A stretch of DNA of 64,000 nucleotides. Source: Candidatus Vogelbacteria bacterium RIFOXYD1_FULL_44_32. GTDB lineage: Bacteria > Patescibacteriota > Minisyncoccia > Phycocordibacterales > XYD1-FULL-46-19. Location of the stretch: the NCBI GenBank assembly GCA_001823065.1, contig MHTJ01000003.1, positions 9,844 to 73,843 on the forward strand. The letters are read 5' to 3'. The translations under genes were made by a program, and so were the position numbers. Shown piece by piece: positions 8,888 to 54,200 of the stretch. The first letter of the stretch is position 1; each line of letters opens with the position of its first letter. The notes beneath the pieces were generated by a model. That model ran no database searches. It had not been told where the DNA came from and saw only the letters and a program-made list of their open reading frames with translations.

Positions 8888-9110
8888 TGACAAGTGGTAG
8901 TGTAAATTAATTATTGGCGTGCCGTAATACCCTGCGACTCGACCACAGGGATAAGAGGCACTAACGATAGGAGCGGCGGAGCCGCTACCTCTTCCAAAAA
9001 ACCAGCCCCGATGCTGTCCGCGTCATACCCCGTCCGCTTGCGGCGGGGAATCGACGGACAGACTGGTTTATTTGCTAGAGTATTTACCAATCTAATCTAT
9101 TTAGAAAAAT

Positions 9111-38525: not shown

Positions 38526-41500
38526 ATGCCAACAAGTTACGGAAAACTGTTACAGACAATCCGTTATTATGTGTTGGTTTTGAAGCAAATAATTTTTAAA
38601 TTTGCTTTTTCAAAGTGGATTAGCAAAAAAAATATCCTAGGAAAAATAAGGGTATTTGGAGTAGTGGTGATTATCCTAGCCAATATTTTTACTCCACTTA
38701 CCGCCAGTGCCGCTATTAATCAGCAAATAAACTATCAGGGTAAACTTACTACTACGGCTGGCGCCGCGGTCACCGACGCTACCCGTAGTACTGTCTTTTC
38801 ACTTTACACCGCTTCGTCTGGGGGCACCGCTATTTGGACCGAAACTCAAAGTGTCTCCACGACTGATGGCTTGTTTAGCGTGATGCTCGGTTCAGTGACT
38901 TCGCTAGCGACAGTCAATTTCAATCAAACTCTCTATCTGGGGGTCAATGTGGCCAGTGACGGCGAAATGTCACCCCGCAAAATTATCGGCGCTGTGCCCG
39001 CTTCTTTTTATTCTAGCGATTCCGATAAACTCGATGGTTTGACCGCCTCTGATTTTCTGTATGCCACTACCACCAATGCCACCGCCACTATTACCTCTTT
39101 AAATGTTGGCAATTCTACGACCACCAACGCGACCACTACCAGTTTATATGTTGGGTCAACTGCCACCGTGGCTGGATCTTTGGTTGTATCAGGAACAGCC
39201 ACTAGTACTTTTAATGGAGGTATAAATCTTCTTGGGACTAATGCTACTTTGACTATTGGCAACAATCTGGCTGAAAATAATTATCTTAAATTCAACTATT
39301 CGTCGACGGGTGGTGGTGATGTGACCGGCCAGCTCGAAGGGGTAGACCAAATGTCCTATGGGTTTAACAATCGGGCTTACTACGGCGGCACGGCGGGCGT
39401 AGCCAGCGGTCGGACTTTGTATATTCTTGATCGCGTGGCCGGGCTCAATCGGGGTGGCTTCAACGCCTCTGGCGATTTCTATGTTGGCCCATCCACTACC
39501 AACTATGGTCTCAATGTCAAAGGTCCCAATTCTGGCGTTACCGGGCTCACTGTTTTGGGAAACGGATATGTGGGCATTGGTACTAGTACTCCAGATACAG
39601 ATTTGGCGGTTTTTGCTAGTACCGGCACCACTACTTTAAAGATTCATAATTCTGGCACCGATTTAAACGCTGTCTTGCAATTTATGGAAGATACAGTGGG
39701 ACAGGGAATGGAACTTCTCTACGATGCCAATGGTAATGATCTAACCATTCGGGGTATTACTGAACAAACACCAATTTTTACGGCGGAACGTACTGGCCGA
39801 GTGGGTATCGGCAAGGCCAACCCTTCAACTACATTGGATATTGTGGGTACTGCTTCCTCAACTGGTTTACAAGTAAATGGCAGTGGAACAATCGCGGGGA
39901 GTTTGACTTTGGGTACTGCCCTAGGTGTTGCCAGTGGTGGTACCGGCCTTACTTCCTACACTTTGGGTGATGTTATTTATGCTTCTGGTACAGGGACACT
40001 GGCTGGCACTTCTACCGCCAATTTGAAAACCACTTTAAGTTTGAACAATGTCGAAAACACGGCCCTGTCCACTTGGGCGGGAACAACCAATTTGACAACG
40101 TTAGGGACAATCGCCACCGGCCTCTGGCATGGCACGGCAATTGAAGATGCTTACATTACCAAAACTGGTGCTTGGACTGGTACCTTTGATGGTCAAGAAG
40201 GTAGTTATTATTTAGACGCCACGAACCTCACCAACTTTGGTACACCGTTCTACACCTATTTCTCCGCCACCACCACCGATGCTCTGACTCAAGGTTCAAC
40301 CAACAAATATTACGCCGACTCTTTGGTTAATGCTTACATTCATGCTTCATCAACTATCCCTAAAACTTACACCGCCAACACTTTCACCGGCGCCAATACT
40401 TTCAACAGCACTTTCACTATCGGCTCCTTCACTGGCCCATTGCAAGCCGCCAACGGCGTCGTCTCCGCCACCACTTCCATCGGCGTCGTCTACGGTGGCA
40501 CCGGTCTCACTTCCGCTCCGGCCTACGGCAACCTGCTGGTTGGTAATGCTTCCAGTGGCTACACTTTGACGGCGACTTCGTCACTCAACCTCGCTATCTC
40601 CGACACTGTTGGTACCTTGAGTGTGGCCAAAGGGGGGACGGGCGCCACCACATTCGGTCAAGGTTGGATATATTCCGATGGTGGCACTGGTGCGCTCGCT
40701 GCTTCAACTTCACCAACGGTCAATTATATTACCGCTACCTCGACCATCGCCACTTCCACCTTTGCTGGTGGCCTCGCGGTGGAGACGAGTGGTTTGGTAT
40801 ATGACTATTCGACCAATAAGGTTGGTATCGGTACAGATAGTCCCACCAATGAACTGCACGTAAATGGCAATGCCCGCATTGGTGAGCTCGGCTTTATAGC
40901 CAACTGGCCGGTGGTATGGTTCAACGCCTACTATGACGATACTGACGCACGGGCAGAGTTTACCACCAGCGATTCTGCTTTTGCTTTGTATCATGATCAA
41001 ACCAATGACTTGTTCAAGATTTTATATAACGCAGTAGGCACGGCTGGAAACCAGGTGAGCTCATCAAACGTTGCATTGTCAGTAAATACATCTGGCAATG
41101 TCGGCATTGGTTCTACCACCCCTGAGGCAAAACTCACCGTTCAAAATACTGGCACGGGTAACTCGTTCATCGTCGAAGACCAAGCCGACGATACCTCACC
41201 TTTTGTCATCAATGCCAGTGGCAATGTGGGTATTGGCATGACTGCTCCCGGCTATAGCCTAGAGGTTTCCAATGCGATTGTCTCATCTTTGGCTAATGGT
41301 TCTGGTCACCCTTATATCGGTATTCGGTCTTCTGGAGCTTCAATGTGGTATTTGTCTGACAATGACACAACCAATGACTTTCATCTCGGTACATCTCTCA
41401 ATGATACAAAGTTTGTCGTTGACTTTTCAACAGGCAACGTCGGCATCGGCGACTCCACTCCCGACTATACCCTCGATGTCACCGGCAACGCTCGATTCAC

Positions 41501-44500
41501 TTCGCTTGTTGATGCTGCCAACTTTGTCGCCACTTCCACCACCGCCACCTCCACCTTTGCTGGTGGCCTCGCGGTGGAGACGAGTGGGTTGGTGTATGAC
41601 TACTCCACCAATTTTGTGGGTATCGGTACAGCTTCGCCATCTCAAGAATTGGAAGTTATCTCCTCGGCAAGTAATAGTAATGTTTTTGTTGTTTCCGATT
41701 CCGCGGGTACTGATACCAGTATTTTCCGTATCTTTGAAGTATCTGGTGGCGGTGGGCTGGCCTCACTTTATAGTGCGTCTGATGCAGAAGCGATTAGGCT
41801 AAGTGCCACCGGTGACTCGTGGATTAACACCGACAATGATCTGGGTATTGGCACCACTTCACCCCTGGCTCGCCTCGATGTCGTCGGCTCTCTATCTGGT
41901 ACTACACCGCTATTTCAAGTTTCTAGTCTGGGCGCGAGCTATGCCACCACGACTCGAATGATAATTGATTCGAGTGGTAATGTGGGGATCGGTTCATCCG
42001 CTCCTTCTGAATTGCTCACTATTCAAGGAGCAAGTGGTGGTATATCGGGTGTTACAGCCGATACGGTGAGAGTTATGATCCATGATACCTCTAATGGTGG
42101 AACTTGGGATATTGTAAATCCGTTTGCTTCTTTTGCTTTTTCGCGGGCTGACACTAGCGGCGAAGGCGCTGGAATAGCCGCGGAAATTGGAGCCGTCCAT
42201 AATGTCTCTAGCACTGGTGGTAATGTGCGAATAGGATTTTTTACCGCTCCAACAACCTCTGGGACTATGTTGGAAAGAATGAGTATTATGGATGCTGGTG
42301 AGGTGGGTATAGGTACCACTACTCCAAGTGCTAAATTGACTGTTACATCAGATACCGCCAGTGATACTTTTGCTTCTTTGTATCTTGGAGCTATTGAAAC
42401 AGCCAGTGACACCTATCTGACTGGTCTATTTAAATCTGGTACAACCAATGGAGCTCCAGATGTGCGGATAGTAGACAAGGATACCAGTCAAGCTCGCGCT
42501 GCTTTACAGATTCAAGGTAATAATGGAAGTACCGAAATCGCTTTCTTTGGGGCCGGTGGTAATGTCGGCATCGGCACCACTACTCCCCAAAATATTTTGA
42601 CAGTAAATAGTGCTTACAATGTGAGCAATGATTCATTGGATGTGAGAATTAACAATACGACCGATAGTTATAATCGGGGGGCGGGTATCCTTTTCTCTGA
42701 CGCCTATCTTACTACTGGGCGGATAATGGGTATGCGTAGTCGGGGGGCATCACTAGCTGCCGACCCACTTTATGGCAGTATGTTTTTGGATTATCGCAGT
42801 AATTTTCATCTATTTAATAATTTAGCTGGTACGACGGAATTTATGCGGATTACTTCAGCGGGCAACATGGGGATTGGCACTACCACACCCCTTGCCCGTC
42901 TTGATGTTGTCGGCTCTCTATCCGGCACTACCCCACTCTTCCAAGTTTCCAGTCTGGGGGCCAGCTATGCTACGAGCACTAAATTTATAATTGATTCCAG
43001 TGGTAATGTCGGCATCGGTACTACCACCCCCGGCACTTCACTTGGTGTCGCGGGGGCTGGAGTCTTCGGGGCCAATGTAACAGCCAGTGTTTTCAATGCG
43101 ACCTCCACCACCGCTACCTCCACTTTTGCGGGGGGTTTGGCGGTGGAGACAAGCGGGTTGGTGTATGACTATTCAACCAATTTTGTGGGAATTGGAACCG
43201 CTAATCCTCATGGAGCTTTAGAAGTCGATGGTAGTATATATACAAGTCGTGAAAATAGAGGCATCTTCTTTAATAATTTTTTCAATGGTACTAATTACAC
43301 AACCATTAATAACGGAGAATCTGGCGTTTTAAATTTCGGTTCTTCTGGGGAGTTAAATTATAGTACCGCCGCTTCTCGCTCAGCTGGGGCAACTGGTTCG
43401 CAGACAAATATATTTACCGTTCTTAATACTGGGAATTTTGGTATCGGCACCTCCACTCCCGGTACCCAACTTGGTGTCGCTGGCGCGGGTGTCTTTGGTA
43501 CTTATGTCAATGCCAGCATATTTAATGCGACTTCTACAACCGCCACCTCCACCTTTGCTGGTGGGCTGGCAGTAGAAACCAATGGACTGGTTTACGACTA
43601 CTCCACAAATTTTGTGGGGGTTGGGACGGCTGCCCCTCAAACAAAATTCAACGTTAATACAGCTAGTGCTTCTCTAAGTTGGAATGGTATGTTTAGAAAT
43701 ACGACTCATCAGTCGGCTGTTGGTCCTGGAGTGGGAGTAAAGTTTCAGCTGGGTGGTGCCGACACTCCTTCTGAATTGCAAAAATGGGCGGGTATTGCCG
43801 GGGTCTCAGAAGTAGGCACTTATGAACAAACAGTCGCTCTAGCCTTTTATACTCGTTTGGAAGCTAGTGCGGCTGATGCGACTGAAAAAATGAGAATTAC
43901 AGGATCGGGCAATGTCGGCGTGGGTACCACCACCCCCTTAGCTCAACTCACCGCTTCGTCTACTAGTAAGATTGGTCTTATTATTGATCAGCGTGGAACT
44001 TCTGACATTGCTCAATTTCAAGATGCTGGTACTTCAATTTTTGTGATTAAAGATGGTGGCAATGTCGGTATCGGTACCACTACCCCGGGGTCGCTTTTGT
44101 CTATCGGCAACACCGGCACCGGGCCTATCAACCTGTCCGCTACCGCCACTTCCACCTTTGGTTTTGGCATCAACCTCCGCGGCGGTTGTTTCTCGATTAA
44201 TGATTCCTGTCTCGCCAGCGGTGGGTCGGGGACCCCGGTGGGTAGTAATGGAAATATTCAGTTTAATAATTCCGGTTCTTTTGGTGGGGAAAATGACTTA
44301 AACTGGAATTCTACTTTGGACATCTTACAAGTTGCAACATCTACTGGTGGTCAGATACATGTCGGATATATAAATAACAGTAATATCACAGGTACAGCAG
44401 CCGCTAATACCTATATATCGTCCGGCCATAGTTTTCTTTCAAACGGAACAAATGCGGCAACTATCTATCTTGCGGTTGGAGGCGCCGACACTTCGATTGG

Positions 44501-45899
44501 GGTTGGCCAAGGAGGAGATGGTGGAGTTGTAAATATGGTTCAGGGGGGTAGTAGTAGTGATACTAACGGTGCTGATGGCACAGTCAACATTGGTCTATCA
44601 ACCGGTAACAAAAATGCCACCGTCAATGTTTATGGGACCATCAATACTATGTTTAGAAATACTGCTACCACTAATGGCGTCTGCCATTCTGGTACTGATC
44701 TAGATACTACTGACACAACTAATACCTACTCTTTAGTTGCCTGTTCGGCGGCACCGGGTGACATCGCCGAATTTTATCCTGTATCTGACGAGGATATAGA
44801 AGCTGGCGATATTGTTGCACCATCACTAGATGAATTTTTGTATAGTGCCGAAGGTAGTGATCCTTATACTGGAGTTGTTAAATCTCTAGGCACTCAAGAT
44901 GTTTCAATAATGGACAAGGCTACTAAAGAGACGGGTTTTGTTGGGGTTGTATCTACTGGTCCATTCCAGACTTTTGGTAAGGATATTTTGAAAGCTAGAG
45001 GCAAAGACAAATCTCGAGCTATTGCCCTAGTTGGTCGGGTGCCAGTAAAAGTAAATGGCGAAGGGGGAAATATAAAGCCCGGTGACCGCATTACTATTTC
45101 ATCCGAACCAGGCATTGGGATGAAGGCTACTACCACTGGTATGACTTTGGGTGTGGCTCTCAATTCTTTTGCTGGCGAAAGTGTCAGTGATACTGGCGAA
45201 GTTATGGTATTTATAAATATGTCTTACGCCAAGATTTCCGATAGTGTCAGTGACGGTGATATTACTGAAGCTTTGTGGCAGATAGACAACACAACTGGAG
45301 ATATCAAAGCTCTAGCCTCGCTTGATTTAGGTGGTAAATCACTAAAAAACATTTCTTCACTTTCTAGTATTACTGGTAAATGGAGTATTAGTGAAGATGG
45401 CAAGCTGGTTGTTGACGAAATAGAAACCAACAAGCTGACAGTCAAAAATGGGATTACGACCCAAGATAAAACCACTGGTGATTTTTATTGTATATATATA
45501 GACAATGGCACTCTTGAAACTGAACAAGGTAGGTGTGAAGATTTGGTTGTAGAAGTAGTGGCTGAACCAGAGCCTGAGCCAGAACCACCGGCCGGTGATA
45601 GCGGTACTGGTGGCGAAACAGGAGACGGAGACGGTGATGGTGACGCTGGTGGTGATATCGGGGGCGAAGAAAATTCCAGTGGTACAACAGAAGAGGGTGG
45701 AAGCACAAGCGGTTCTGCTGGAGAAGAATCGACAGGAGACGAGGAGGCTACTACTGGAGGAGAAACTGGTGGTGGGACAGACCCCGGCGCAAGTGAATCG
45801 GATGTAGGAACTTCTGAAAGTGGAGAGCCATCAGTCGAGTCGGGTGGCGATAGTCAGACCGGTGATTCGAGTGGTGGGGAAACTACTAGTGGTGTGTAA
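38526..45899 (+). CDS. giant (2457 aa) secreted/surface fibre-like protein with Thr/Ser/Gly-rich beta-repeat arrays and an acidic low-complexity C-terminus
   Basis: It has an N-terminal hydrophobic anchor or signal. There are at least 4 copies of ATSTFAGGLAVETSGLVYDYSTN(F/K)VGIGT, many (S/G)GNVGIGTTTP...L(T/D)V motifs resembling phage tail-fibre-like repeats, 2 copies of a ~45-aa LARLDVVGSLSGTTPLFQVSSLGASYAT block, and a C-terminal EPEPEPEPPAGDSGTGGETGDGDGDGD tail. Confidence 0.8.
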   Translation: MPTSYGKLLQTIRYYVLVLKQIIFKFAFSKWISKKNILGKIRVFGVVVIILANIFTPLTASAAINQQINYQGKLTTTAGAAVTDATRSTVFSLYTASSGGTAIWTETQSVSTTDGLFSVMLGSVTSLATVNFNQTLYLGVNVASDGEMSPRKIIGAVPASFYSSDSDKLDGLTASDFLYATTTNATATITSLNVGNSTTTNATTTSLYVGSTATVAGSLVVSGTATSTFNGGINLLGTNATLTIGNNLAENNYLKFNYSSTGGGDVTGQLEGVDQMSYGFNNRAYYGGTAGVASGRTLYILDRVAGLNRGGFNASGDFYVGPSTTNYGLNVKGPNSGVTGLTVLGNGYVGIGTSTPDTDLAVFASTGTTTLKIHNSGTDLNAVLQFMEDTVGQGMELLYDANGNDLTIRGITEQTPIFTAERTGRVGIGKANPSTTLDIVGTASSTGLQVNGSGTIAGSLTLGTALGVASGGTGLTSYTLGDVIYASGTGTLAGTSTANLKTTLSLNNVENTALSTWAGTTNLTTLGTIATGLWHGTAIEDAYITKTGAWTGTFDGQEGSYYLDATNLTNFGTPFYTYFSATTTDALTQGSTNKYYADSLVNAYIHASSTIPKTYTANTFTGANTFNSTFTIGSFTGPLQAANGVVSATTSIGVVYGGTGLTSAPAYGNLLVGNASSGYTLTATSSLNLAISDTVGTLSVAKGGTGATTFGQGWIYSDGGTGALAASTSPTVNYITATSTIATSTFAGGLAVETSGLVYDYSTNKVGIGTDSPTNELHVNGNARIGELGFIANWPVVWFNAYYDDTDARAEFTTSDSAFALYHDQTNDLFKILYNAVGTAGNQVSSSNVALSVNTSGNVGIGSTTPEAKLTVQNTGTGNSFIVEDQADDTSPFVINASGNVGIGMTAPGYSLEVSNAIVSSLANGSGHPYIGIRSSGASMWYLSDNDTTNDFHLGTSLNDTKFVVDFSTGNVGIGDSTPDYTLDVTGNARFTSLVDAANFVATSTTATSTFAGGLAVETSGLVYDYSTNFVGIGTASPSQELEVISSASNSNVFVVSDSAGTDTSIFRIFEVSGGGGLASLYSASDAEAIRLSATGDSWINTDNDLGIGTTSPLARLDVVGSLSGTTPLFQVSSLGASYATTTRMIIDSSGNVGIGSSAPSELLTIQGASGGISGVTADTVRVMIHDTSNGGTWDIVNPFASFAFSRADTSGEGAGIAAEIGAVHNVSSTGGNVRIGFFTAPTTSGTMLERMSIMDAGEVGIGTTTPSAKLTVTSDTASDTFASLYLGAIETASDTYLTGLFKSGTTNGAPDVRIVDKDTSQARAALQIQGNNGSTEIAFFGAGGNVGIGTTTPQNILTVNSAYNVSNDSLDVRINNTTDSYNRGAGILFSDAYLTTGRIMGMRSRGASLAADPLYGSMFLDYRSNFHLFNNLAGTTEFMRITSAGNMGIGTTTPLARLDVVGSLSGTTPLFQVSSLGASYATSTKFIIDSSGNVGIGTTTPGTSLGVAGAGVFGANVTASVFNATSTTATSTFAGGLAVETSGLVYDYSTNFVGIGTANPHGALEVDGSIYTSRENRGIFFNNFFNGTNYTTINNGESGVLNFGSSGELNYSTAASRSAGATGSQTNIFTVLNTGNFGIGTSTPGTQLGVAGAGVFGTYVNASIFNATSTTATSTFAGGLAVETNGLVYDYSTNFVGVGTAAPQTKFNVNTASASLSWNGMFRNTTHQSAVGPGVGVKFQLGGADTPSELQKWAGIAGVSEVGTYEQTVALAFYTRLEASAADATEKMRITGSGNVGVGTTTPLAQLTASSTSKIGLIIDQRGTSDIAQFQDAGTSIFVIKDGGNVGIGTTTPGSLLSIGNTGTGPINLSATATSTFGFGINLRGGCFSINDSCLASGGSGTPVGSNGNIQFNNSGSFGGENDLNWNSTLDILQVATSTGGQIHVGYINNSNITGTAAANTYISSGHSFLSNGTNAATIYLAVGGADTSIGVGQGGDGGVVNMVQGGSSSDTNGADGTVNIGLSTGNKNATVNVYGTINTMFRNTATTNGVCHSGTDLDTTDTTNTYSLVACSAAPGDIAEFYPVSDEDIEAGDIVAPSLDEFLYSAEGSDPYTGVVKSLGTQDVSIMDKATKETGFVGVVSTGPFQTFGKDILKARGKDKSRAIALVGRVPVKVNGEGGNIKPGDRITISSEPGIGMKATTTGMTLGVALNSFAGESVSDTGEVMVFINMSYAKISDSVSDGDITEALWQIDNTTGDIKALASLDLGGKSLKNISSLSSITGKWSISEDGKLVVDEIETNKLTVKNGITTQDKTTGDFYCIYIDNGTLETEQGRCEDLVVEVVAEPEPEPEPPAGDSGTGGETGDGDGDGDAGGDIGGEENSSGTTEEGGSTSGSAGEESTGDEEATTGGETGGGTDPGASESDVGTSESGEPSVESGGDSQTGDSSGGETTSGV

Positions 45900-45998
45900 T
45901 CAAAAATTAAAAATTTTTTCTAAACGAAAAAGTGCCCGCCCAACGAGTGAGCGGACACAGAGGGTTCCAGGGAGAGAGACTAGTTCTGCCTTAAAACC

Positions 45999-46496
45999 CT
46001 AAAGCTTACAGACTAGCCCGGCGACCGGACTGGTCATAAAAACGTAGACGGTTTCGCCGGTGGTGAGAGTGCCGGCCTCAGCGGGAGCGAGAGAGAGGAA
46101 AATAATTTTCCCTTCAATGTCAGCGGTTCCGTGGAACCGCCAAATCGAAGAGTTCTCCCTCACTGTCACTGACGTGAGCTTGGTCTCGACAACTTCTAGA
46201 GTGTCGAGGTCCCAGCCCTGGGCCTCCCACCAGTCGCGGGCGGGGGTGGTGGCTTCGATCCTCGCATTTTCCTCCGTCCGTTCGCGTCCGCGCGCGAGCT
46301 CGGATTCCGTCATCGGAATCATGCTCGAGTTGGCGGCCGCGTACACCGTGTCCATCGGTGTACCCGGGATGAAAAACGGAATCAACGCAATTGTGCCGAT
46401 AGTGATGGATACCGCCACCATCCCGGCGATCAACACCCGCATTCTCCACGTCATCTTTTTGACGGTCTTTGGGCCGTCATTGTTAACAGTCAACAT
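45999..46496 (-). CDS. GC-rich hypothetical membrane-anchored protein (165 aa from ATG 46496)
   Basis: A GGAGG SD lies 4 nt upstream of the ATG on the minus strand and there is one N-terminal TM helix. Coding DNA is ~60% GC. Confidence 0.45.
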   Translation of the reverse strand: MLTVNNDGPKTVKKMTWRMRVLIAGMVAVSITIGTIALIPFFIPGTPMDTVYAAANSSMIPMTESELARGRERTEENARIEATTPARDWWEAQGWDLDTLEVVETKLTSVTVRENSSIWRFHGTADIEGKIIFLSLAPAEAGTLTTGETVYVFMTSPVAGLVCKL

Positions 46497-46672
46497 ATGG
46501 CCTCCTTGCTGGATAACCAGCCCTAATGATAAGTGCTCTAATTTAGATAATACACAATATAGAAAAAAAGTCAAGTACAAGGGGAAAATAGGGGATAAGT
46601 GATATTTAGGTATAAAAATAGCGCCGACTCTGGGGGAGAGCCGGCGCGCTTGGCTTTGTTCTGGTCTTGAAC

Positions 46673-47545
46673 CTAGAACAAAGCCGTGAGGATTGCGTTC
46701 AGACGGGAAGCGGGACCCCGTCCGGTTGGGTACTTTTCAAACGAAACGTGTCCGTCCATGTACAGGATGTTGGCGCCACCAGGAACGTGGTTGAAATCGT
46801 CGGCTTGGGCGTCGACGATATCCCAGAGGACGTAAACATTGCTCTGGGCCGCTGAGCTTGCCGCCGCGTTGTTGATGTCGGTAATGAAAAATCGCTCAAT
46901 GCCTTCGCGCAAGCGCAAGCCTTTGGTGGCTGCTCCACCCGCGTTGGTCCAAGACAAGTCGTTATCCGCGGCCGTTGCGTTTCCGCCACCGACAGCGGTG
47001 GCCACTCCAACTAAGGCGCCGACAAATCCGGCGTCGATATAGGTGCCAACGGCGTTGGCTAGGGTCATGGCACCGTCGTTGAAGTTGACCCCGGGTACTC
47101 CAATCAGGTCTTGGAAGGCCCAACCGGAATACACCAACGAAAGCGAATCTAATTCACAGGGGGCAAACGTCCCGCTGGGGCTGTTTCCCACCTGCCACCG
47201 ACCACCGGTGAAGCGGTCGATGCCGTCGGAATCGGACGGGCAGACAAACACCTTCAAATCAGCGATGTACTCGGGGAACACTGAGTCCCCGCGCACGATG
47301 AAGTCAAACCCGGGCGACTCGCAAAAGTCCCCGTCCCTCGTCTTCGCGGTTGGGAACTTCTCGCCCTTGCTCTCGTTCGCGTACATCTTGAGCACTATTC
47401 CGATCTGCTTGAGATTGTTGGCGCAGGACGCCCGACGGGCCGCTTCGCGCGCCCGGGCCAGTGCCGGCAACAGAATGGCCGCGAGGATGCCAATGATGGC
47501 GATGACCACCAACAGTTCGATCAGGGTAAATCCCTTTTTCTTCAT
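46673..47545 (-). CDS. DUF1559 / H-X9-DG protein with type IV pilin-like (prepilin-type) N-terminal cleavage/methylation domain
   Basis: N-terminus [49 protein letters not shown] and C-terminus [15 protein letters not shown]. This family is hugely expanded in Planctomycetota/Verrucomicrobiota. It has ~60% GC and a GAAGGAG SD. Confidence 0.85.
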
Positions 47546-47696
47546 TTCTCAACACTCCTTCTTTTTCTGTATTTTACCTCACGCCAGGGCGACGCCCTTA
47601 GCAACTAGATGAGGTGTCAGTCCGCTACCAGTTATACACTTCATATAAATAATGTCAAGGTGTGAAATTTGGAATTTAAATTTGAAAATCTGGGTT

Positions 47697-47737
47697 AGCC
47701 ACCATTCATTTATTCCCCACGAGGTTCAACCTCGTGG
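47697..47737 (+). repeat. 41-bp direct repeat copy 1 (AGCCACCATTCATTTATTCCCCACGAGGTTCAACCTCGTGG) containing an 8-bp-stem hairpin
   Basis: It matches 48468-48508 at 40/41 positions. Confidence 0.8.
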
Positions 47738-47862
47738 TGGGGATCTATTTTCCAAAGTTTAACCTTGGAATTTAGCCGGTGGGTTGTAATTTCCCCCCGT
47801 TTTGGCGAAGCCAAAACGGGGGGAATTTACTTAATATTTTTTAAAATGTTACAATAATTTAA

Positions 47863-48339
47863 ATGAACAATTACGCATTTATTGATGCTCAAAATGTCCA
47901 CCTAGGCATCAAATCTTTGGGTTGGGATTTGGACTGGGGAAAATTTAGAGTTTATCTGAGAGAAAAGTATAATATTTTCACGGCCTATATTTTCATTGGA
48001 TTTATCCAGACCAACCAAGATTTATATTCCGAGCTACAGAAAGCGGGTTATATTTTGATATTTAAACCAATTATTTTAGACAACAACGGAAAAGCTAAGG
48101 GAAATTGTGACGCGGATCTAGTATTGCACTCTCTTATAGAAAAAGATAAATATGACCAGGCGGTTATTGTTACCAGTGATGGAGATTTTTATTCCCTCGT
48201 TCGCTATTTATACGAGAACGGTAAACTGGCAATGGTGCTAAGTCCTTATGCCGAAACCTGCTCCAAATTGTTAAAAAGAGAAGCTAAAGATAAGATAAAC
48301 TATATGGACAATTTGAAGGGGAAAGTTGGGCAAAAATGA
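47863..48339 (+). CDS. NYN-domain (LabA/DUF88-like) protein, predicted RNase
   Basis: Motifs FIDAQNV, GNCDADLV and VIVTSDGDF are characteristic of the NYN/PIN-like family. Confidence 0.75.
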   Translation: MNNYAFIDAQNVHLGIKSLGWDLDWGKFRVYLREKYNIFTAYIFIGFIQTNQDLYSELQKAGYILIFKPIILDNNGKAKGNCDADLVLHSLIEKDKYDQAVIVTSDGDFYSLVRYLYENGKLAMVLSPYAETCSKLLKREAKDKINYMDNLKGKVGQK

Positions 48340-48381
48340 AAACGCACCGCATAAGGACAAAACCTTATGAAGTGCGTTTTC
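48340..48381 (+). terminator. intrinsic terminator (nested hairpin AAACGCAC...GTGCGTTTT)
   Basis: The stem plus T-run lies immediately after the NYN gene stop. Confidence 0.55.
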
Positions 48382-48467
48382 TTGTGGATATATACATCAT
48401 ATAGAAATTACCCTAAAAGTCAACTATTTTGATAGGTCTGGAAATTTAGCATCGGAGAATTGGGGTC

Positions 48468-48508
48468 AGCCACCATTCATTTATTCCCCACGAGATTCAA
48501 CCTCGTGG
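48468..48508 (+). repeat. 41-bp direct repeat copy 2
   Basis: Has one mismatch relative to copy 1. Together the two copies bracket the NYN gene. Confidence 0.8.
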
Positions 48509-49026
48509 CGAAGCCCAATTTTTTGAGAGTTAAAGTAAAAACCGTTCTTGCTTAAAAAATTCCTGCTCTTCCTAGTTCTCCAATGACTCCTTTTAGATAG
48601 CTCAGCGAAGTCTGACCTCAAATGGGTAAGTTGTTGGGGGTAGCTTTTTAGGTATTGTGAGGGTAATTTAGAAGAATAAAGTTTAAAGGACAGGTATTTC
48701 TATCGGACATTTAGGAGGGGAGAAAGTAAAACAGGGGGTTTTTAGGTGGTGGGGGAGTAAAGATGGGGTCAGTTTTTAGACAAACTAAATCTTAAAAAAT
48801 ATATATTTAGACGTAATAAAAAATTTATAAACCAGCCAATAATCTTTTCCTTGACAAGTGGGCTCTAAAGTAGTAGTAATTTCAGGGTAGATAGATCTTT
48901 CCCACCTGTTTCTTTGTAGAAATTGCGGTGGGTTCAACTCAGGTGAAAGTTTGTCTTTCACTCAGTGCTCAATTTAAATTATAAATCTCACTTTGTCCTA
49001 AACGAGGCTCTAACTCGTCGTTTTTT

Positions 49027-51204
49027 GTGTATATGTTCAAAAGTATCCTAAAGACCAATAAAACAAAAATCTTCACTCTACTCCTAGTAGCGGTGGTAGT
49101 TTTTGGTGCCTTTGGTTTACCCCTGACCACTTATGCCGACGACGGTAGTGCTACCGCTTCAGTGGATTCAACCTCGACTGCGGACACTGGTGATACTGGT
49201 AGTACAGACACCGGCAGTGCGGATGCTAGTACCAGCGAAAGTGCTTCTGGTTCAGCTGATACTACTGCCACCGGCTCAACCGAAGAGCCAACGGGCACTG
49301 GAGAGGGTGTATCGGACACTGACCAGAGTGTATCGGACACAGATTCAACCACCACTTCCGGTGAGGGTGAGACTGGTACCAGTGACCAGAATACTGGCGA
49401 TACTCAAACTGGGGATAACTCTACAGGGGAAGAAGAAACCAGTGATACTGGCACGACCACTACTCCGATCTTGCCTGATACAGAAAACACTGATACTGGC
49501 ACGACTACGGAGCCGACCTTACCTGGAGATAATGGGACCACGACGGTTCCTGTGCTTCCTGAAGGGGGTGATACTGGTACGACCACCGTGGCGACTACTA
49601 CCGAGCCAGTGACTGGTGGTGAAGACCAAGATGAACTTCCTTTAGTAGAGGGATATCTTCCTCCGGCGGAAGATGTGTCAGGTGAATATGATATGACTAC
49701 ATCCGAGGACGATGGGTTGCCAGCGGTAGCTGAAGATGTTTCCGCTGAATACAACTTCACCACTCTATCGGACACTCTGCCAGCGGTGGAAGAGGAGGTC
49801 TCCCTCGAATACAATTTTAATACACTTGAATCAGGAGGGGGAACTCTAGCTGAAGATGTTTCCGCTGAGTACCACTTCACGACTCTATCGGACAATAATC
49901 CTCCAGTTGACGAGGAGTATTCCTTGGAGTACCACTTCACCACTCTATCGGACACAAATCCTCCAGTGGATGAGGAACACTCCAATGAATATTTCTTTAC
50001 GACATTGTCCGATACAAATCCTTCTAGCGAGGAGTTTTCTAATGAATACAATTTTACCACCGACGATGATGGTGGTACTAATCCACCAAATGAGGAATAT
50101 TCTAATGAGTACCAATTTGGAACTACTGGTGGGGGTGGAACAGAAACGGAAGAAGAATATTCCAATGAGTACAGCTTTACCACCGACGATGATGGTGGTA
50201 CTAATCCACCAAATGAGGAATATTCTAACGAGTACCAATTTGGAACTACTGGTGGGGGTGGAACAGAAACGGAAGAAGAATATTCCAATGAGTACAGCTT
50301 TACTACCGATAACGGTGGCTGTACCGAAAATTGTGGTGGCGGAGGTGGAGGCGGTGGTGGCGGAGGCGGGCATAATCACAAAAAGAATAAAGTTTTGCCT
50401 AGTCCGTGCATGCCACTACTCTTGAAATATATTCGCTTGGGGGCCAACAACGATCCGTATGAAGTTTACAAACTGCAGTGGTTCTTGCGGACTTTTGAAA
50501 ATATGGAAATACCTTTGTCCGGAGTGTATGACCAGACCACATATGAAGCAGTAAAAATATTCCAAGCGCGCCATGCGACAGATGTGCTCCACAGCTGGGG
50601 TATTACTGAGCCGACCGGCTATGTCTATATCACCACCCAACTGATGGTAAATTATATTTACTGTGATATTGACGAGCCACTGCGTCTAGAATTATTGCTC
50701 GAGGAACAAACGGGCACTGGTTTTGGTTATACTAAATTACCAAGTAAAGGTGATGGTCTAGACTATCTGGTCTATCCGCCAAAAACCGAGCGTACGGTGT
50801 TTGAAGGTATCACTCTTGATTTACCCGCCGAAGCAGACAAAAAAGTTGGTAATATTTTTCAACTAGCCACCGCCGGTTTTATGGATTGGCTTCAGGGTAC
50901 CGAAGGTAAGTATTGGTGGTGGTTGATTATTTTGCCGTTGGTAGTGGTTGCTGGTTATCTATATCGGCGATTGAAAGTTGAACAAACTGACAAAGAATTA
51001 GCCCAAGAGGCGCAGGCCACAATTTTGGAAGCCGACCGCGAAATGACCGCTGAACCAATTGTCGGAGCCGAGGCGGAGACACCACATAAAGAAGATGTGC
51101 CCGATGAAATTATTGCCGAATACAATGCGGCTAATGGCGGACACCAAGCTGGCCAAGAAGCCATAGTTTTGCCAGGCGAGAGTCTAGAGGACCGAGAGAG
51201 TTAA
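49027..51204 (+). CDS. secreted acidic repeat protein with a PG_binding_1-like peptidoglycan-binding domain, a single TM helix and a cytoplasmic tail
   Basis: It has a signal peptide, a Thr/Asp/Glu/Gly-rich region with ~19-aa repeats (EEYSNEYxFTTLSDTNPP), and a G12 tract. The PG-binding region reads YEVYKLQWFL...SGVYDQTTYEAVKIFQARH and the TM segment is WWWLIILPLVVVAGYLY. Confidence 0.75.
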   Translation: MYMFKSILKTNKTKIFTLLLVAVVVFGAFGLPLTTYADDGSATASVDSTSTADTGDTGSTDTGSADASTSESASGSADTTATGSTEEPTGTGEGVSDTDQSVSDTDSTTTSGEGETGTSDQNTGDTQTGDNSTGEEETSDTGTTTTPILPDTENTDTGTTTEPTLPGDNGTTTVPVLPEGGDTGTTTVATTTEPVTGGEDQDELPLVEGYLPPAEDVSGEYDMTTSEDDGLPAVAEDVSAEYNFTTLSDTLPAVEEEVSLEYNFNTLESGGGTLAEDVSAEYHFTTLSDNNPPVDEEYSLEYHFTTLSDTNPPVDEEHSNEYFFTTLSDTNPSSEEFSNEYNFTTDDDGGTNPPNEEYSNEYQFGTTGGGGTETEEEYSNEYSFTTDDDGGTNPPNEEYSNEYQFGTTGGGGTETEEEYSNEYSFTTDNGGCTENCGGGGGGGGGGGGHNHKKNKVLPSPCMPLLLKYIRLGANNDPYEVYKLQWFLRTFENMEIPLSGVYDQTTYEAVKIFQARHATDVLHSWGITEPTGYVYITTQLMVNYIYCDIDEPLRLELLLEEQTGTGFGYTKLPSKGDGLDYLVYPPKTERTVFEGITLDLPAEADKKVGNIFQLATAGFMDWLQGTEGKYWWWLIILPLVVVAGYLYRRLKVEQTDKELAQEAQATILEADREMTAEPIVGAEAETPHKEDVPDEIIAEYNAANGGHQAGQEAIVLPGESLEDRES
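50050..50289 (+). repeat. 2 x 120-bp near-perfect tandem repeat inside the 49027 gene
   Basis: NEYNFTTDDDGGTNPPNEEYSNEYQFGTTGGGGTETEEEYS is encoded twice, with only 1-2 nt differences. Confidence 0.8.
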
Positions 51205-51285: not shown

Positions 51286-54200
51286 ATGGTGTCTAACCAC
51301 TCTAAGCGGTATAAAGGCCGATATTCATTTCTAACTTACATCAAGCCAGCTTTCCTAGTGCTGGCTTTTTTATTCTTTTTCCAATTAATCACGCCAGTCG
51401 CCCTGGCTCAAGACGGGACGGTGGAGGAATCATTGCCGCTTCCTCCGGCAGAGGAGCCAGCACCCGTTCTTCCGCCGGCCGGAGGTAGTATCAGCGACCC
51501 CGAAGCTCCAGCCGAACTGGCAGCAGTTGCGGAGGAAGACAACCTAGTCGCTTTGTCACTTACTGTCACCAGTCGTTCGCCGGTAGACTTAGGCAAGCCA
51601 CCAGTGGGAACGGGCTTTAAAATTTCGGCCGACACCTCGGACGGCTCGCTGGCATATGAGTTTCCCCTGACTCTCCCTCCTGGCCGCCAGGGTTTGGCCC
51701 CGGAGCTGTCTTTGCTCTATTCTAGCCGTCCTACTAGCGCTACCTCTTTATTTGGTTACGGTTGGACGTTGTCGATTCCTTTTATCGAACGAAAAAATCT
51801 TCATGGTTCGGATCGGCTGTACGAGGAGACAGATTTCACTTCTTCCTTAAGTGGTGACTTGGTGGCCTTAGGCGGCGAGACCTATCGCGCCAAAGTTGAT
51901 GAGGGGGAGTTTCTGGTTTATGTTTTCCGCGATAATGCTTGGACAGTGACAGACAAAAGCGGCATGGTCTACCGCTTCGGCCAGACCGCCGCCGCCCGTC
52001 AGGATGATGCTGATCATCCGACCCACGTCTACAAATGGATGCTCGAGGAAGTTCGCGATCTAAACGGAAATTATGTTACCTATCGTTATGCCAAAGATTC
52101 CAACCAAATTTATCCGGAATCAATAACTTATACTCACCATGCTGATACGGCTGGTCTATATTCAATACGCTTCATCAAAACTCCACGTGATTATCCCGTC
52201 ACCTCTTGGGCGGCAGGTTTTAAAGTTGTCACCAATCATATTATAAGTGAAATAGTTGTTGAAGTCGGAGGAGGGTGGACGAGGAAGTATTCTTTCGCCT
52301 ATACCCAGCGAGACAACCAGAGTCGGTCATTGCTAACCTCAATCATCGAATGGGGAAATGACGGTTCAAAAATCATCTCTTTACCACCGACCACCTTTAC
52401 TTATCAAGTATCAGCTAAGGCCTGGGTTGAAAACAGCCGTTGGACTTTGCCAGTGTCTCTTGTCGGAGACAACTACGAAGACACGGGCGCGCGAATTGCC
52501 GACATTAATGGCGATGCTTTACCCGATATTATAACTAATAATAATGGCTCCTTTCTTAACACTGGTTACGGTGACTGGGACAGAGCCGGCCCCGAGTGGA
52601 CCCTGCCTGTGGCGTTGACGAAACCAGATGTGGTCCACCCTGGAAGTATGTTGATTGACGTTAATGGTGATGGATTGATTGATATTGCCCAAAGTCGGGA
52701 TGGTGATGAGGACCCGGATATTGTCTATTTTAATACTGGCCACGGCTGGGTGACATCGTCGACCACGGTTCCGGTCTATTTTGCGACGCGAAACGGCAGT
52801 GATAACGGAGTCCGGGTTGCCGACATTAATGGCGACGGTCTGCCTGATTTGTTGCGTTTTCATGCTGGCGACGGCGCATTGGGTAATCGTGTTTATATCA
52901 ATAATGGTTCCGGCTGGAGCGAAGATCGGTCCTGGGTTTTACCGGAGCCGACCCTTGCCGGCGACGGCCAGACTGATTTGGGCACGCGTTTTGGCGACGT
53001 TAATGGTGATGGCCTAGTCGATATCCTTCGCAAAGATGAAAGCGTTAGTAAAGTCTATTTCAATACTGGTCACGGTTGGGAACTGGCCTCTGCTTGGGTT
53101 ATTACCGCCGAGGAATTTATGAACGACGGTGGTGATCGAGGCACGCGAGTTTATGATGTCAATAGTGACGGATTTGACGATCTTGTGAATAGTCAGGCGC
53201 CAGGTGATGTTGGTGTTTATCTCAATACGGGTAGTCCTTCTAACGACTGGACTTTAGACATGAGCTGGCGTATTCCTTTCAGGTTGGTTGATTATCTTCG
53301 CGACGGGGGCCGTTACGTTGATCCGGGAACGCGGTTGGTGGATTTAAACGCTGACGGACTCCTGGACATACTTCAGTCACGATCAAGTGGCCCGAACCAG
53401 GTTTATTTTCAAGCTGGCCCACAGCCTGATCTCCTTCAGAGTGTGACATTTAGTCGGGGCGGTGGGGCGAACATTACCTATCTCTCCAGCACCTTTTATC
53501 ATCCAAATGGTCTTGGTCGTCTCAATCAAAAGTTGCCGTTTCCGATGATAACGGTTAGTACGATTACCGAGCACGATGGCCTCGGCGGTAGTGCCACTAC
53601 CGAATATAGTTATAAAAATGGCGAATATTATCACGAGAACATTCTTGACCGAAAATTTGCCGGCTTTGGCCAAGTGGAAAAAACCGATGCCATGGGCAAT
53701 ATTACTAAAACCTATTTTCACCAAGGTAATGATTCTGATTCTGGTCGCGGGGAATTTGAAGATCATTTTAGTAAAATTGGGCGAATTTATCGAGTAGAAA
53801 AATATGATTCAGCTGGCAATTTATTGACCCAAGAAATTAGTCGGTGGGGGAGGGTGGCCTTGGCTGTCAGCGCTGGCCTTGATCGATCTTTTGTTCCATT
53901 GTTAAACAATATAAAAATGACTTACGATGGCGACAATAGTCACCGTGATGTGGCTGAAGCCTATACTTATGATAATTTTGGTAATTTAGTTCGGGCCGAA
54001 AATTATGGTGAAGTGGTGGCTAGTGACGATGGAAGTTTTAGTGATCTGGGTTCTGATAAAACAACCAAGATTTTGAGTTATGTCACAAACTCAACAACGG
54101 GCATATTGGGGTTAGTAAGGATGGAAGAATTGAGAAATAACAATGGAGCCAATGTGGCGGTCAAAAAATATTATTATGATAATCTTCCCATTGGGGCAGT

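Follow-up and report, generated by a model that had tools for sequence, protein, structure and literature searches.

Lateral transfer of genes into CPR/Patescibacteria has been documented, examples being RuBisCO and the host-derived genes of Saccharibacteria. The gene described here, ORF A, resembles these cases in being foreign to an otherwise typical reduced genome and in lying in a variable cell-surface region, but it differs from them in belonging to a pilin-like family that has been thought specific to another superphylum and in keeping the composition and ribosome-binding site of its donor in a host whose genes mostly lack a Shine-Dalgarno (SD) site. The family is that of the DUF1559 proteins (PF07596, "SBP_bac_10"; TIGR04294), of which 68-74 paralogues occur in a planctomycete (PMC10632474, PMC2754498) and whose function is unknown even in the Planctomycetes (PMC10632474). 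ORF A shares with the prepilin-like DUF1559/H-X9-DG-CTERM paralogues of Planctomycetota and allied phyla a prepilin motif placed directly before the DUF1559 N-terminal region, a length of ~290-300 residues, and a C-terminal PGG-N-x4-DGH motif. It departs from them in aligning with only positions 2-42 of the 268 in the Pfam profile, in its H-X10-DG spacing, in occurring as one copy, with no other prepilin motif, in the 64-kb window (the whole stretch of DNA analyzed) of an AT-rich CPR bacterium, and in having its nearest relatives in Hydrogenedentota-labelled MAGs. Type IV pilins and T2SS pseudopilins, such as Thermus PilA4 (6xxd), Vibrio EpsG (4lw9), PulG (5wda), and Geobacter PilA-N, are also close to it.

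The source of the window is Candidatus Vogelbacteria RIFOXYD1_FULL_44_32, a groundwater CPR bacterium with a small, AT-rich genome, which agrees with the context that the initial annotation had described from the DNA itself. We consider it probable that the GC-rich segment at 45930-47625 is genuine Vogelbacteria DNA and holds two foreign-looking genes, separately acquired and separately transcribed, of which ORF A was gained by horizontal transfer and encodes a putative pilus subunit.

Composition and Genes of the Segment

The GC content of 45930-47625 is 0.560 compared with 0.428 in the remaining window, and in 300-nt windows it reaches 0.59-0.62 at 46000-46450 and at 46750-47500. Within the segment, the coding sequences of ORF B and ORF A have values of 0.570 and 0.585, and the AT-rich spacer between them (46497-46620) has a value of 0.331. 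The jump in GC that had been noted previously is confirmed by these figures, but its left edge is less crisp than was described, as the giant gene that ends there already has a GC content of 0.554 in its final 350 nt; this is a consequence of amino-acid content, the GC3 of the whole gene being only 0.407. A 30-nt spacer with a GC content of 0.133 separates the end of the giant gene from the GC-rich segment and adjoins the ORF B terminator region (0.565).

The GC3 of both genes (Table I) is far above that of the 45 other ORFs of the window (0.390 ± 0.066; z ~ +5), and no other 1.7-kb stretch of the window deviates as far in tetranucleotides as the segment does (distance 0.0407, z = 3.3). A comparison of tetranucleotide and codon usage, which the initial annotation had suggested, thus reveals the atypical composition by which horizontal islands are recognized. 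The same annotation remarked on two minus-strand genes with unusually strong SD sites, and both sites are present, AGGAGG 4 nt upstream of the ORF B ATG and AGGAG 9 nt upstream of the ORF A ATG, whereas an SD-type motif of any kind was found in just 4 of the 44 other ORFs. Elsewhere in the window, the repeat-rich parts of the giant genes are nearly as deviant in tetranucleotides (0.040).

Table I. Features of the GC-rich segment and its right flank, in window coordinates
Feature	Position	Strand	Description
ORF B intrinsic terminator	45932-45958	-	11-bp GC-rich stem, then TTTTTCGTTT; terminator scan; left edge of GC-rich DNA
ORF B	45999-46496	-	165-aa orphan; GC3 0.711; AGGAGG SD at 46501-46506
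ORF B promoter region	46547-46600	-	AT-rich; TTGACT-16-TATTAT at 46574-46547; promoter scan
ORF A intrinsic terminator	46621-46647	-	GCGCCGGCTCTCCCCCAGAGTCGGCGC, then TATTTTTATA; region GC 0.654
ORF A	46673-47545	-	290 aa; prepilin-type DUF1559 protein with HX9DG-like C terminus (H-X10-DG); GC3 0.724
ORF A 5' UTR	47546-47625	-	AGGAG SD at 47555-47559; GC 0.50; right edge of GC-rich DNA
ORF A promoter-like site	47630-47657	-	TTGACA-16-TATAAC, read by eye; AT-rich, native-looking DNA
Hairpin element	47763-47855	.	Contains CCCCGTTTTGGCGAAGCCAAAACGGGG at 47795-47821; common to Hainich groundwater contigs

ORF B starts at the ATG at 46496, so that its product is shorter than the 193 residues of the mechanical ORF. 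One N-terminal transmembrane segment (residues 21-39) is predicted, the remainder being extracytoplasmic. No match to the protein was found in Pfam, NCBIfam, PHROG, or PADLOC, and a word-index search returned only the query; when 1.84 billion representatives were searched exhaustively with phmmer, the matches were ORF B itself and one homologue (P0129; 45% identity, E = 3.6e-18), which sits on an AT-rich contig from Hainich groundwater. Three further phmmer matches, to repeat proteins with E values of 1e-4 to 1e-5, were taken as spurious, and AF2 gave no usable model (pLDDT 45.8). ORF B is probably an orphan protein that spans the membrane once and that the lineage already carried.

On the anatomy of its predicted signals, the segment is two monocistronic units, each having its own promoter-like site and terminator, with the AT-rich spacer between them. 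A block upstream of the ORF B promoter, 46564-46600, is conserved in one of the Hainich contigs, L082 (598-634, 89%, BLAST), and since the promoter motif, CTTATCCCCWATTT, is unique within the window, its conservation in L082 reflects homology as opposed to the recurrence of a common motif. The ORF A promoter-like site lies just downstream, on the minus strand, of a copy of the 68-nt D1 repeat (47684-47751); a second D1 copy (48455-48522) is accompanied by a similar promoter-like site at the matching offset (48423-48396), found by the scan. The 5' UTR of ORF A gave no sign of a structured leader or riboswitch (fold z of -0.58; no Rfam family at E < 0.05). When the segment was considered as a defense system, PADLOC matched only the NYN neighbor, and this reading was set aside.

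The ORF A Protein

The identification of 46673-47545 as a DUF1559/H-X9-DG prepilin in the initial annotation is upheld by profile searches, with a correction of the motif spacing, and the N terminus of the protein reads as it was quoted there. The protein has a class III signal peptide (MKKKG/FTLIE) with the prepilin signature, consisting of a basic leader ending in Gly, a Glu at +5, and a hydrophobic stretch; this is followed by a long α1 helix, and the protein contains four invariant Cys. PF07963 (N_methyl) scores 37.3 bits against a curated cut-off of 21.2, TIGR02532 (IV_pilin_GFxxxE) 36.4 against 16.3, TIGR04294 (HX9DG) 23.6 against 19 (residues 255-269), and PF07596 (DUF1559) 48.8 bits against a gathering threshold of 23.3 (E = 1.3e-12), so that all four pass, the DUF1559 alignment being a short one that spans residues 31-73. 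The C-terminal His-to-Asp motif is H-X10-DG and not X9 in 46 of 46 members of the clade, and hence is a spacing variant. Scores for the named pilin equivalogs are below their cut-offs (GspG, TIGR01710, 40.1 versus 88.85; PilA_Myxo, 35.9 versus 400; ComGC, 35.3 versus 75) and these matches do not extend beyond the N-terminal helix; sequence matches in the PDB are to pilins and pseudopilins throughout, over residues 2-69. ORF A is intact, retaining 73 of the 73 invariant columns of the 46-member clade, including the G-1/E+5 signal and the four Cys, and is as central in the clade as its other members (mean identity 0.556 versus 0.559).

Relatives and Probable Donor of ORF A

A protein search with ORF A, one of two such searches that had been advised previously, returned at least 8000 homologues, the best non-self matches being 50-61% identical and from another phylum; that with ORF B gave the one true homologue described above. 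The labels of the best 80 genomic loci comprise 43 Hydrogenedentota and 21 Nitrospiraceae/Nitrospirales, the remainder being uncultured or odd MAGs, and 5 of the 80 are labelled "Bathyarchaeia." The matches that carry names are Hydrogenedentes/-ota, including the groundwater MAG JACPUG01, and the cluster members of unnamed top matches add just one further Hydrogenedentes label. Among the 120 protein matches listed and the best 80 loci there is no homologue from Patescibacteria. The gene had been called Planctomycete-type and its family essentially restricted to the PVC group; the DUF1559 family assignment stands, but the restriction is imprecise, as the best 80 loci are mainly Hydrogenedentota and include none labelled Planctomycetota or Verrucomicrobiota.

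The homologous coding sequences also resemble ORF A in composition, with a GC content of 0.565 ± 0.042 and a GC3 of 0.707 ± 0.107 (0.585 and 0.724 in ORF A), and a GGAG/GAGG SD is found at 77 of their 93 start codons, compared with 4 of 44 native ORFs. The tetranucleotide profile of the segment resembles that of the Hydrogenedentota-type loci (distance 0.0216, normalized r = 0.60) more than that of its host (0.0407), and pieces of the host correlate with the donor profile with an r of only 0.22 ± 0.13. Paralogue arrays are present at 16 of the 80 donor-type loci, which fits a direction of transfer from donor to CPR. The nearest relatives lie outside the Patescibacteria, a phylogenetic incongruence that is judged from match labels and not from a rooted tree. 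Composition, SD usage, and phylogenetic affinity all support a foreign origin for ORF A.

From these labels we infer that the donor was most probably a member of the Hydrogenedentota, although it should be noted that the labels are uneven in quality, since 21 of the 80 are Nitrospiraceae/Nitrospirales and 5 are "Bathyarchaeia," and that a top identity of only 61% implies that the true donor is unsampled. ORF A would have come from a GC-rich (~58%) lineage with an expanded DUF1559/HX9DG family, on a piece of ~1 kb (roughly 46615-47625), retaining the codon usage, SD site, and GC-rich terminator of the donor, and would now be located behind an AT-rich promoter-like site beside a native-looking repeat. 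The setting for the insertion would be a variable region that lies between giant genes for surface proteins and is full of small cassettes and repeated hairpins, and uptake might have occurred, for example, by natural transformation followed by illegitimate recombination. No integrase or transposase adjoins the segment and no tRNA is present in the 64-kb window; mobility signatures are also missing in that no direct repeats were found to flank the segment, and at the borders of ORF A the one candidate for a target-site duplication is an unconvincing 6-nt resemblance (ATCCCC) seen by eye. A phage vector was considered and rejected, as IMG/VR matches reach only the N-terminal helix (residues 1 to ~140), with no full-length DUF1559 protein, and PHROGs match ORF A at the pilin helix alone.

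Contiguity of the Segment and Alternative Origins

It is very unlikely that the segment results from a misjoining of 1-1.7 kb from a GC-rich genome, of Hydrogenedentota or Planctomycetota, into the Vogelbacteria contig, the mis-assembly that was offered as one option in the initial annotation. Such an origin would account for the sharp contrast in composition, and groundwater metagenomes contain donor-type organisms and CPR together, but it would require the assembler to have made a wrong join twice in 1.7 kb. A contig from Logan, which uses a different assembler (L001, SRR2090173; listed for 2 samples), matches 6.8 kb of the window (41558-48374) with 100% identity and no gaps and spans both junctions, which makes an assembly chimera unlikely; SRR2090173 may come from the same library or from a sister one, and although the assembly software differs, the underlying reads may not be independent. 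The order giant gene-ORF B-ORF A-NYN is also repeated on contigs of 320,175 bp and 688,001 bp that come from other sources, and the GenBank accessions for this neighborhood are consecutive (OHA58438, 58439, 58441). Furthermore, the GC-rich coding sequences are framed by AT-rich promoter regions, which would not be expected in a pasted-in fragment, and one of these regions has a conserved counterpart on a further contig that is AT-rich and CPR-like.

If the segment is genuine, its two genes could have been gained in a single event from the same donor, as was assumed when it was described as a single island. They are adjacent, on the same strand, near-identical in GC and GC3, and both have strong SD sites. 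Nevertheless, this origin is improbable, as a terminator, an AT-rich spacer (GC 0.33), and an independent promoter lie between the genes, and a tblastn search with ORF B within about ±4 kb of 80 donor-clade DUF1559 genes gave a best E of 0.9, which disposes of a conserved ORF A/ORF B cassette; in addition, the contig that carries the sole homologue of ORF B shares its promoter block but has no ORF A. In the Hainich contigs L082 and L087, which are only 1.1-1.2 kb in length, the ORF B promoter and coding sequence are present and ORF A is absent, and only 20 nt lie between the hairpin element and the ORF B promoter block, which leaves 46601-47762 (1,162 nt, encompassing D1, promoter, ORF A, and terminator) without a counterpart. 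We regard this arrangement as a putative empty site for the ORF A unit, but the hairpin is itself repeated in Hainich contigs and the colinearity with L082 and L087 may therefore not be orthologous. A metagenome scan with the hairpin returned only the Hainich contigs L086 and L087, and the source contig was not among them. A third GC-rich, SD-bearing gene in the window, a DUF218-like gene at 16727-17425, bears on the age of the transfer: its homologues and that of ORF B stay GC-rich in diverged, AT-rich, CPR-like contigs (GC3 0.61; flanks 0.40-0.47), and GC content alone is thus a poor clock here. The inter-phylum transfer previously proposed is retained, but that it was recent is unproven, since high GC persists in diverged relatives, despite the lack of any amelioration in ORF A. 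The same persistence would be compatible with ORF A being an ancient, vertically inherited CPR gene, with a GC content arising from mRNA selection or a local mutational bias; such a history is scarcely credible given that there is no CPR homologue among the proteins listed or the best loci, that the gene is missing at the putative orthologous site in L082 and L087, and that in composition and SD usage it is a precise match for the donor clade.

A Putative Pilus Subunit

ORF A is most likely a PilD-processed subunit of the type IV pilus of its recipient, a role for which we infer the processing from CPR in general. The pre-protein would be inserted in the membrane through its hydrophobic α1 helix, the prepilin peptidase of the recipient would cut after Gly5 and methylate the Phe, and the mature protein would join the CPR pilus, probably as a minor or tip subunit, with the Cys-stabilized DUF1559 head displayed on the cell surface. 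A type IV pilus system with PilD is widespread in CPR, as is a pilin-folding thiol-disulfide oxidoreductase (PMC6744442), and the ORF A gene is intact, with every clade-invariant residue in place, and has a complete promoter-SD-terminator frame. On the other hand, the 64-kb window contains no pilus machinery, prepilin peptidase, or native pilin and no second protein with a prepilin motif, the ORF A promoter is a consensus match only, the function of DUF1559 is unknown, and the unameliorated composition implies that there has been too little time for selection. ORF A might consequently have no part in a pilus and be either a neutral, unexpressed, or decaying passenger or a stand-alone, membrane-anchored surface protein that is not processed by PilD. 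We view this as doubtful, but as an alternative that carries some weight. Useless DNA is seldom kept by the small genomes of CPR, which counts against a passenger.

Implications

Overall, the acquisition of ORF A is a clear but fairly ordinary horizontal gene transfer, an inter-phylum movement of a pilin-like surface gene into a CPR genome with support at the level of its junctions. It indicates that DUF1559/HX9DG proteins are not confined to the Planctomycetota but include a large H-X10-DG subclade in Hydrogenedentota-type MAGs, with one member in the Patescibacteria. It also provides a caution, in that GC-rich, SD-bearing genes persist across diverged relatives in the lineage, so that a transfer cannot be dated from unusual composition alone.

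A more far-reaching proposal is that ORF A was captured from a Hydrogenedentota-type host, on which this Vogelbacterium would live as an epibiont, and that the recipient exposes it on its type IV pilus to act as an adhesin or recognition subunit that mimics the host. This is a distinctly long shot; were it true, ORF A would offer a molecular clue to the host of a Parcubacteria lineage and would exemplify a symbiont that draws on the surface filaments of its host. As an extension of this proposal, the GC-rich, SD-bearing genes ORF A, ORF B, and that at 16727-17425 might be successive imports from GC-rich partners. For most Parcubacteria no host is known, and contact of CPR with their hosts is generally attributed to type IV pili; a foreign, pilin-like gene is therefore a cheap and testable lead to an association between Vogelbacteria and Hydrogenedentota.

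Composition and Assembly of the GC-rich Segment

The segment at 45930-47625, which holds the DUF1559 prepilin-like gene ORF A and a gene for an orphan membrane protein, ORF B, has a GC content of 56.0% versus 42.8% in the remainder of the 64-kb window, with peaks of 0.59-0.62 at 46000-46450 and 46750-47500 (300-nt windows); the compositional jump described in the initial annotation is real. GC content within the segment is uneven, from 0.331 in a spacer to 0.654 in the region of the ORF A terminator, and the left edge is blurred because the acidic, low-complexity tail of the adjoining giant gene has a GC content of 0.554, GC3 of that gene being only 0.407. The strongest signal lies in the third codon positions, where GC3 reaches 0.711 in ORF B and 0.724 in ORF A but averages 0.390 ± 0.066 in 45 other ORFs (z about +5). 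The tetranucleotide and codon-usage comparison that had been proposed finds the segment deviant in both respects; in tetranucleotide frequency it is the most deviant 1.7-kb stretch of the window (z = 3.3), but the repeat-rich parts of the giant genes are nearly as deviant because of their internal repeats. The strong Shine-Dalgarno sites also stand as described, AGGAGG preceding ORF B and AGGAG preceding ORF A, with any such motif in just 4 of 44 other ORFs; about 40 of the 44 native ORFs have AT-rich leaders and no recognizable motif within 20 nt of the start codon (47 starts in the window, some of which, being mechanically called, may be wrong). Antisense ORFs in the segment, such as 46060-46602 and 47043-47612 on the plus strand, were dismissed as an expected side effect of GC-rich coding sequence.

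That the segment is an assembly chimera, one of two readings originally offered, is very improbable. It would require two false joins in 1.7 kb and would leave the AT-rich regulatory DNA that frames the GC-rich coding sequences unexplained. Furthermore, a 6,817-bp contig from the Logan assembly of run SRR2090173, with the order NYN gene, ORF A, ORF B, and giant gene, matches window 41558-48374 with 100% identity and 0 gaps, so that both junctions are reproduced by different software. The ORF A protein is identical to A2571_01520 of "Candidatus Vogelbacteria bacterium RIFOXYD1_FULL_44_32"; the name Candidatus Vogelbacteria appears in the genome study of the Rifle aquifer (PMC5079060). Consecutive accessions for this organism cover the neighboring proteins (SecA, OHA58436; giant protein, OHA58438; ORF B, OHA58439; NYN, OHA58441), and the contigs that carry them measure 320,175 bp at NCBI and up to 688,001 bp at JGI/ENA. 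The feature is real and, very probably, correctly assembled.

Features of the segment, its surroundings, and related contigs (window coordinates unless a contig is named)
Feature	Position	Strand	GC	Description
Third GC-rich gene	16727-17425	+	0.581	GC3 0.685; GGAGG SD
Giant surface-protein gene	38526-45899	+		2457 aa; "...NVGIGTTTP..." internal repeat units
ORF B terminator	45958-45932	-	0.565 (region)	Scan
ORF B CDS	46496-45999	-	0.570	
ORF B promoter-like site	46574-46547	-		TTGACT-16-TATTAT; scan
AT-rich spacer	46497-46620		0.331	
ORF A terminator	46647-46621	-	0.654 (region)	Predicted
ORF A CDS	46673-47545	-	0.585	290 aa; N terminus MKKKG/...
ORF A 5' UTR		-	0.500	
ORF A promoter-like site	47657-47630	-		TTGACA-16-TATAAC; read from sequence
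D1 repeats	47684-47751, 48455-48522			Each with hairpin CCACGAGGTTGAAYCTCGTGG
Hairpin	47786-47830			Perfect 16-bp stem, CCCCCCGTTTTGGC GAA GCCAAAACGGGGGG
Same hairpin	L082 517-548; L086 1045-1074; L087 362-390, 830-859			
Hairpin element	L082 488-578			= window 47855-47763; contains CCCCGTTTTGGCTTCGCCAAAACGGGG
BLAST block	L082 598-634			= window 46600-46564
BLAST block	L082 757-896			= window 46481-46339
Giant surface-protein gene	49027-51204	+		725 aa; "EEYSNEYxFTT" units, weak peptidoglycan-binding domain
Giant surface-protein gene	51286-57192	+		1968 aa; internal repeats

Family and Origin of ORF A

The assignment of ORF A to the DUF1559 / H-X9-DG prepilin-type proteins is borne out by scores that exceed the curated cut-offs for PF07963 N_methyl (37.3; cut-off 21.2), PF07596 DUF1559 (48.8; 23.3), and TIGR04294 H-X9-DG-CTERM (23.6; 19). 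It needs qualification, however, in that ORF A matches the 268-position DUF1559 profile at positions 2-42 alone and the C-terminal motif has H-X10-DG spacing, as in all 46 members of its clade. In the profile search, ORF A fell far below the cut-offs for GspG, PilA, ComGC, and other named pilins, and its PDB sequence matches, which cover only residues 2-69, are without exception pilins or pseudopilins. Because all clade-invariant residues are kept and divergence is no greater than in other members, the gene looks functional rather than decaying. It stands alone in the 64-kb window, where a second copy of the prepilin motif or DUF1559 was not found.

In the literature DUF1559 is still "apparently restricted to Planctomycetes," where it has no assigned function and reaches 68-74 paralogues per genome (PMC10632474, PMC2754498), and the label "Planctomycete-type" holds at the level of the family but not for the nearest clade. 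Among at least 8000 homologues of the protein, the best non-self matches listed have 50-61% identity, and the named ones are labeled Hydrogenedentes/-ota, with one Nitrospiraceae MAG and one "bacterium." In a scan of species-representative genomes, the best 80 loci (39-54% identity) comprised 43 from Hydrogenedentota, Hydrogenedentes, or Hydrogenedens MAGs, 21 from Nitrospiraceae or Nitrospirales, 9 from "uncultured bacterium," 5 from one "Bathyarchaeia" MAG, and 2 from one 7.9-Mb chromosome; none was labeled Planctomycetota, Verrucomicrobiota, or Patescibacteria. The Nitrospiraceae/Nitrospirales and Bathyarchaeia labels look unreliable, which blurs identification of the donor. Paralogues belonging to the clade found in Hydrogenedentota MAGs also occur in many "Nitrospiraceae" MAGs, and DATKVG01 ("Candidatus Bathyarchaeia archaeon SMAG_U14127"), which has bacterial DUF1559 prepilin genes on at least five separate contigs (L004, L011, L036, L054, and L075), is surely mislabeled or contaminated. 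The best match is in the Hydrogenedentes MAG JACPUG01, which we take to be a groundwater genome because it shares the JACP prefix with "NC_groundwater" MAGs of the scan.

The composition of ORF A is indistinguishable from that of the homologous coding sequences in these donor-clade loci (GC 0.565 ± 0.042, GC3 0.707 ± 0.107), where mean GC is 58.4% and a GGAG/GAGG motif precedes 83% of the start codons. The composition-normalized tetranucleotide profile of these loci correlates with the segment at r = 0.60, compared with 0.67 ± 0.10 for donor pieces and 0.22 ± 0.13 for host pieces. More than one paralogue is present in 16 of the 80 loci versus a single copy in the window, which fits transfer from the donor to the CPR. 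ORF A adds a member to a known family, in a phylum where none was expected, and is most aptly viewed as a pilin-like gene (DUF1559 / HX10DG) of Hydrogenedentota-type origin that this Vogelbacteria genome acquired horizontally.

ORF B and the Organization of the Locus

The true start of ORF B is the ATG at 46496, giving 165 residues versus 147 in the GenBank version, with one strong transmembrane segment (residues 21-39). It matches nothing in Pfam, NCBIfam, PHROGs, or PADLOC, its structure prediction was unusable, and of the 1.84 billion representative proteins searched exhaustively with phmmer just one proved to be a true homologue (45% identity, E = 3.6e-18). This is encoded on L082, a 1.1-kb contig assembled from Hainich groundwater (well H51, 0.1-µm fraction), by a gene that is also GC-elevated (GC3 0.61 amid AT-rich DNA, 0.40) and is preceded by a block, ACTTATCCCCWATTTWCCYCTTGYACTTGACTTTTTT, that is conserved upstream of ORF B and occurs once in the window. 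The homologue (L082 682-1095) ends at a genuine in-contig stop about 55 residues short of the ORF B end and lacks the C-terminal beta-rich part.

The segment had been viewed as one island, but ORF A and ORF B are, from their predicted signals, separate units, each with its own promoter-like site, SD, and terminator; no ORF A adjoins the ORF B homologue in L082, and no ORF B-like sequence was found near any of the 80 donor-clade genes. L082 is 99.8% identical over 664 nt to L087, a contig from a replicate sample, and BLAST comparison with the minus strand of the window gave colinear blocks. Twenty nucleotides in the Hainich contigs replace 1,162 nt of the window (46601-47762) containing one copy of the D1 repeat and the promoter, coding sequence, and terminator of ORF A. 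These contigs look like an empty site for ORF A, with putative orthology only, since the flanking hairpin element is repeated in them. This resemblance suggests that ORF A inserted beside an already resident ORF B, which is best described as an older gene beside the acquired one.

The segment is flanked by giant surface-protein genes (2457 residues upstream; 725 and 1968 downstream), whose products have long acidic Gly/Glu/Thr/Ser tails. It adjoins an NYN-domain gene (47863-48339), matching the PADLOC NYN model, that lies between the two 68-nt D1 direct repeats (84% identical). On the minus strand, each D1 runs on into a promoter-like TTGAC[A/T]-16-TAT[A/G]A[C/T]; one D1 precedes the candidate ORF A promoter, and at the other the promoter-like site is directed antisense into the NYN gene. 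In contigs from the 0.1-µm fraction of Hainich H51, the perfect hairpin is conserved at 90-100% across 30 nt and separates small cassettes (HicA/HicB-like and coiled-coil ORFs and the ORF B homologue). It looks like a lineage-specific intergenic repeat marking a cassette hotspot, and the region around the segment thus resembles such a variable hotspot. Elsewhere, window 8911-9049, which lies between the ORFs at 7829-8887 and 9111-9926, matches positions 7-128 at one end of the Hainich contig L086 with 80% identity over 123 nt (97% over 29 nt) and is a further non-coding element common to these groundwater CPR-like genomes.

Timing of the Transfer

No amelioration is seen in ORF A, which would usually be read as recent transfer, one of the two readings in the initial annotation, but this reading is weakened by ORF B and by the gene at 16727-17425. 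ORF B is GC-rich in two lineages sharing just 45% identity in that protein. The third gene, which like ORF A and ORF B has a GGAGG-type SD, has no Pfam match and about 15 homologues (one named ElyC/SanA/YdcF, from Patescibacteria, and one DUF218); it sits in an AT-rich polysaccharide-synthesis cluster. Homologues at the syntenic position, ahead of an epimerase gene, have GC3 values of 0.615 (contigs L083 and L084) and 0.42 (L085). Elevated GC persists, or decays at differing rates, in relatives, which makes GC a poor clock for dating in this lineage. The date of the insertion is bounded only in that ORF A arrived after divergence from the Hainich relative, unless that relative lost it.

Proposed Uptake and Function of ORF A

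Scans of window ORFs, tRNAs, and repeats found no integrase, transposase, tRNA, or flanking repeat at the insertion, and no full-length relative of ORF A was found on viral contigs; uptake could plausibly have come about by natural transformation and subsequent illegitimate recombination. The gene is an intact prepilin-type gene framed by a predicted promoter, SD, and terminator. Its product would enter the membrane via its α1 helix, have its leader removed after Gly5 and its new N terminus methylated by the prepilin peptidase of the recipient, and join the type IV pilus of the CPR cell, probably as one of the minor subunits, with a disulfide-stabilized head exposed. Genes for pilus machinery, PilD, or a thiol-disulfide oxidoreductase were not found in the 64-kb window; PilB/T, PilC, PilM/N/O, PilD, and a thiol-disulfide oxidoreductase thought to fold pilins are reported to be widespread or enriched in CPR (PMC6744442). 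ORF A may offer a clue to the partner organism of the recipient.
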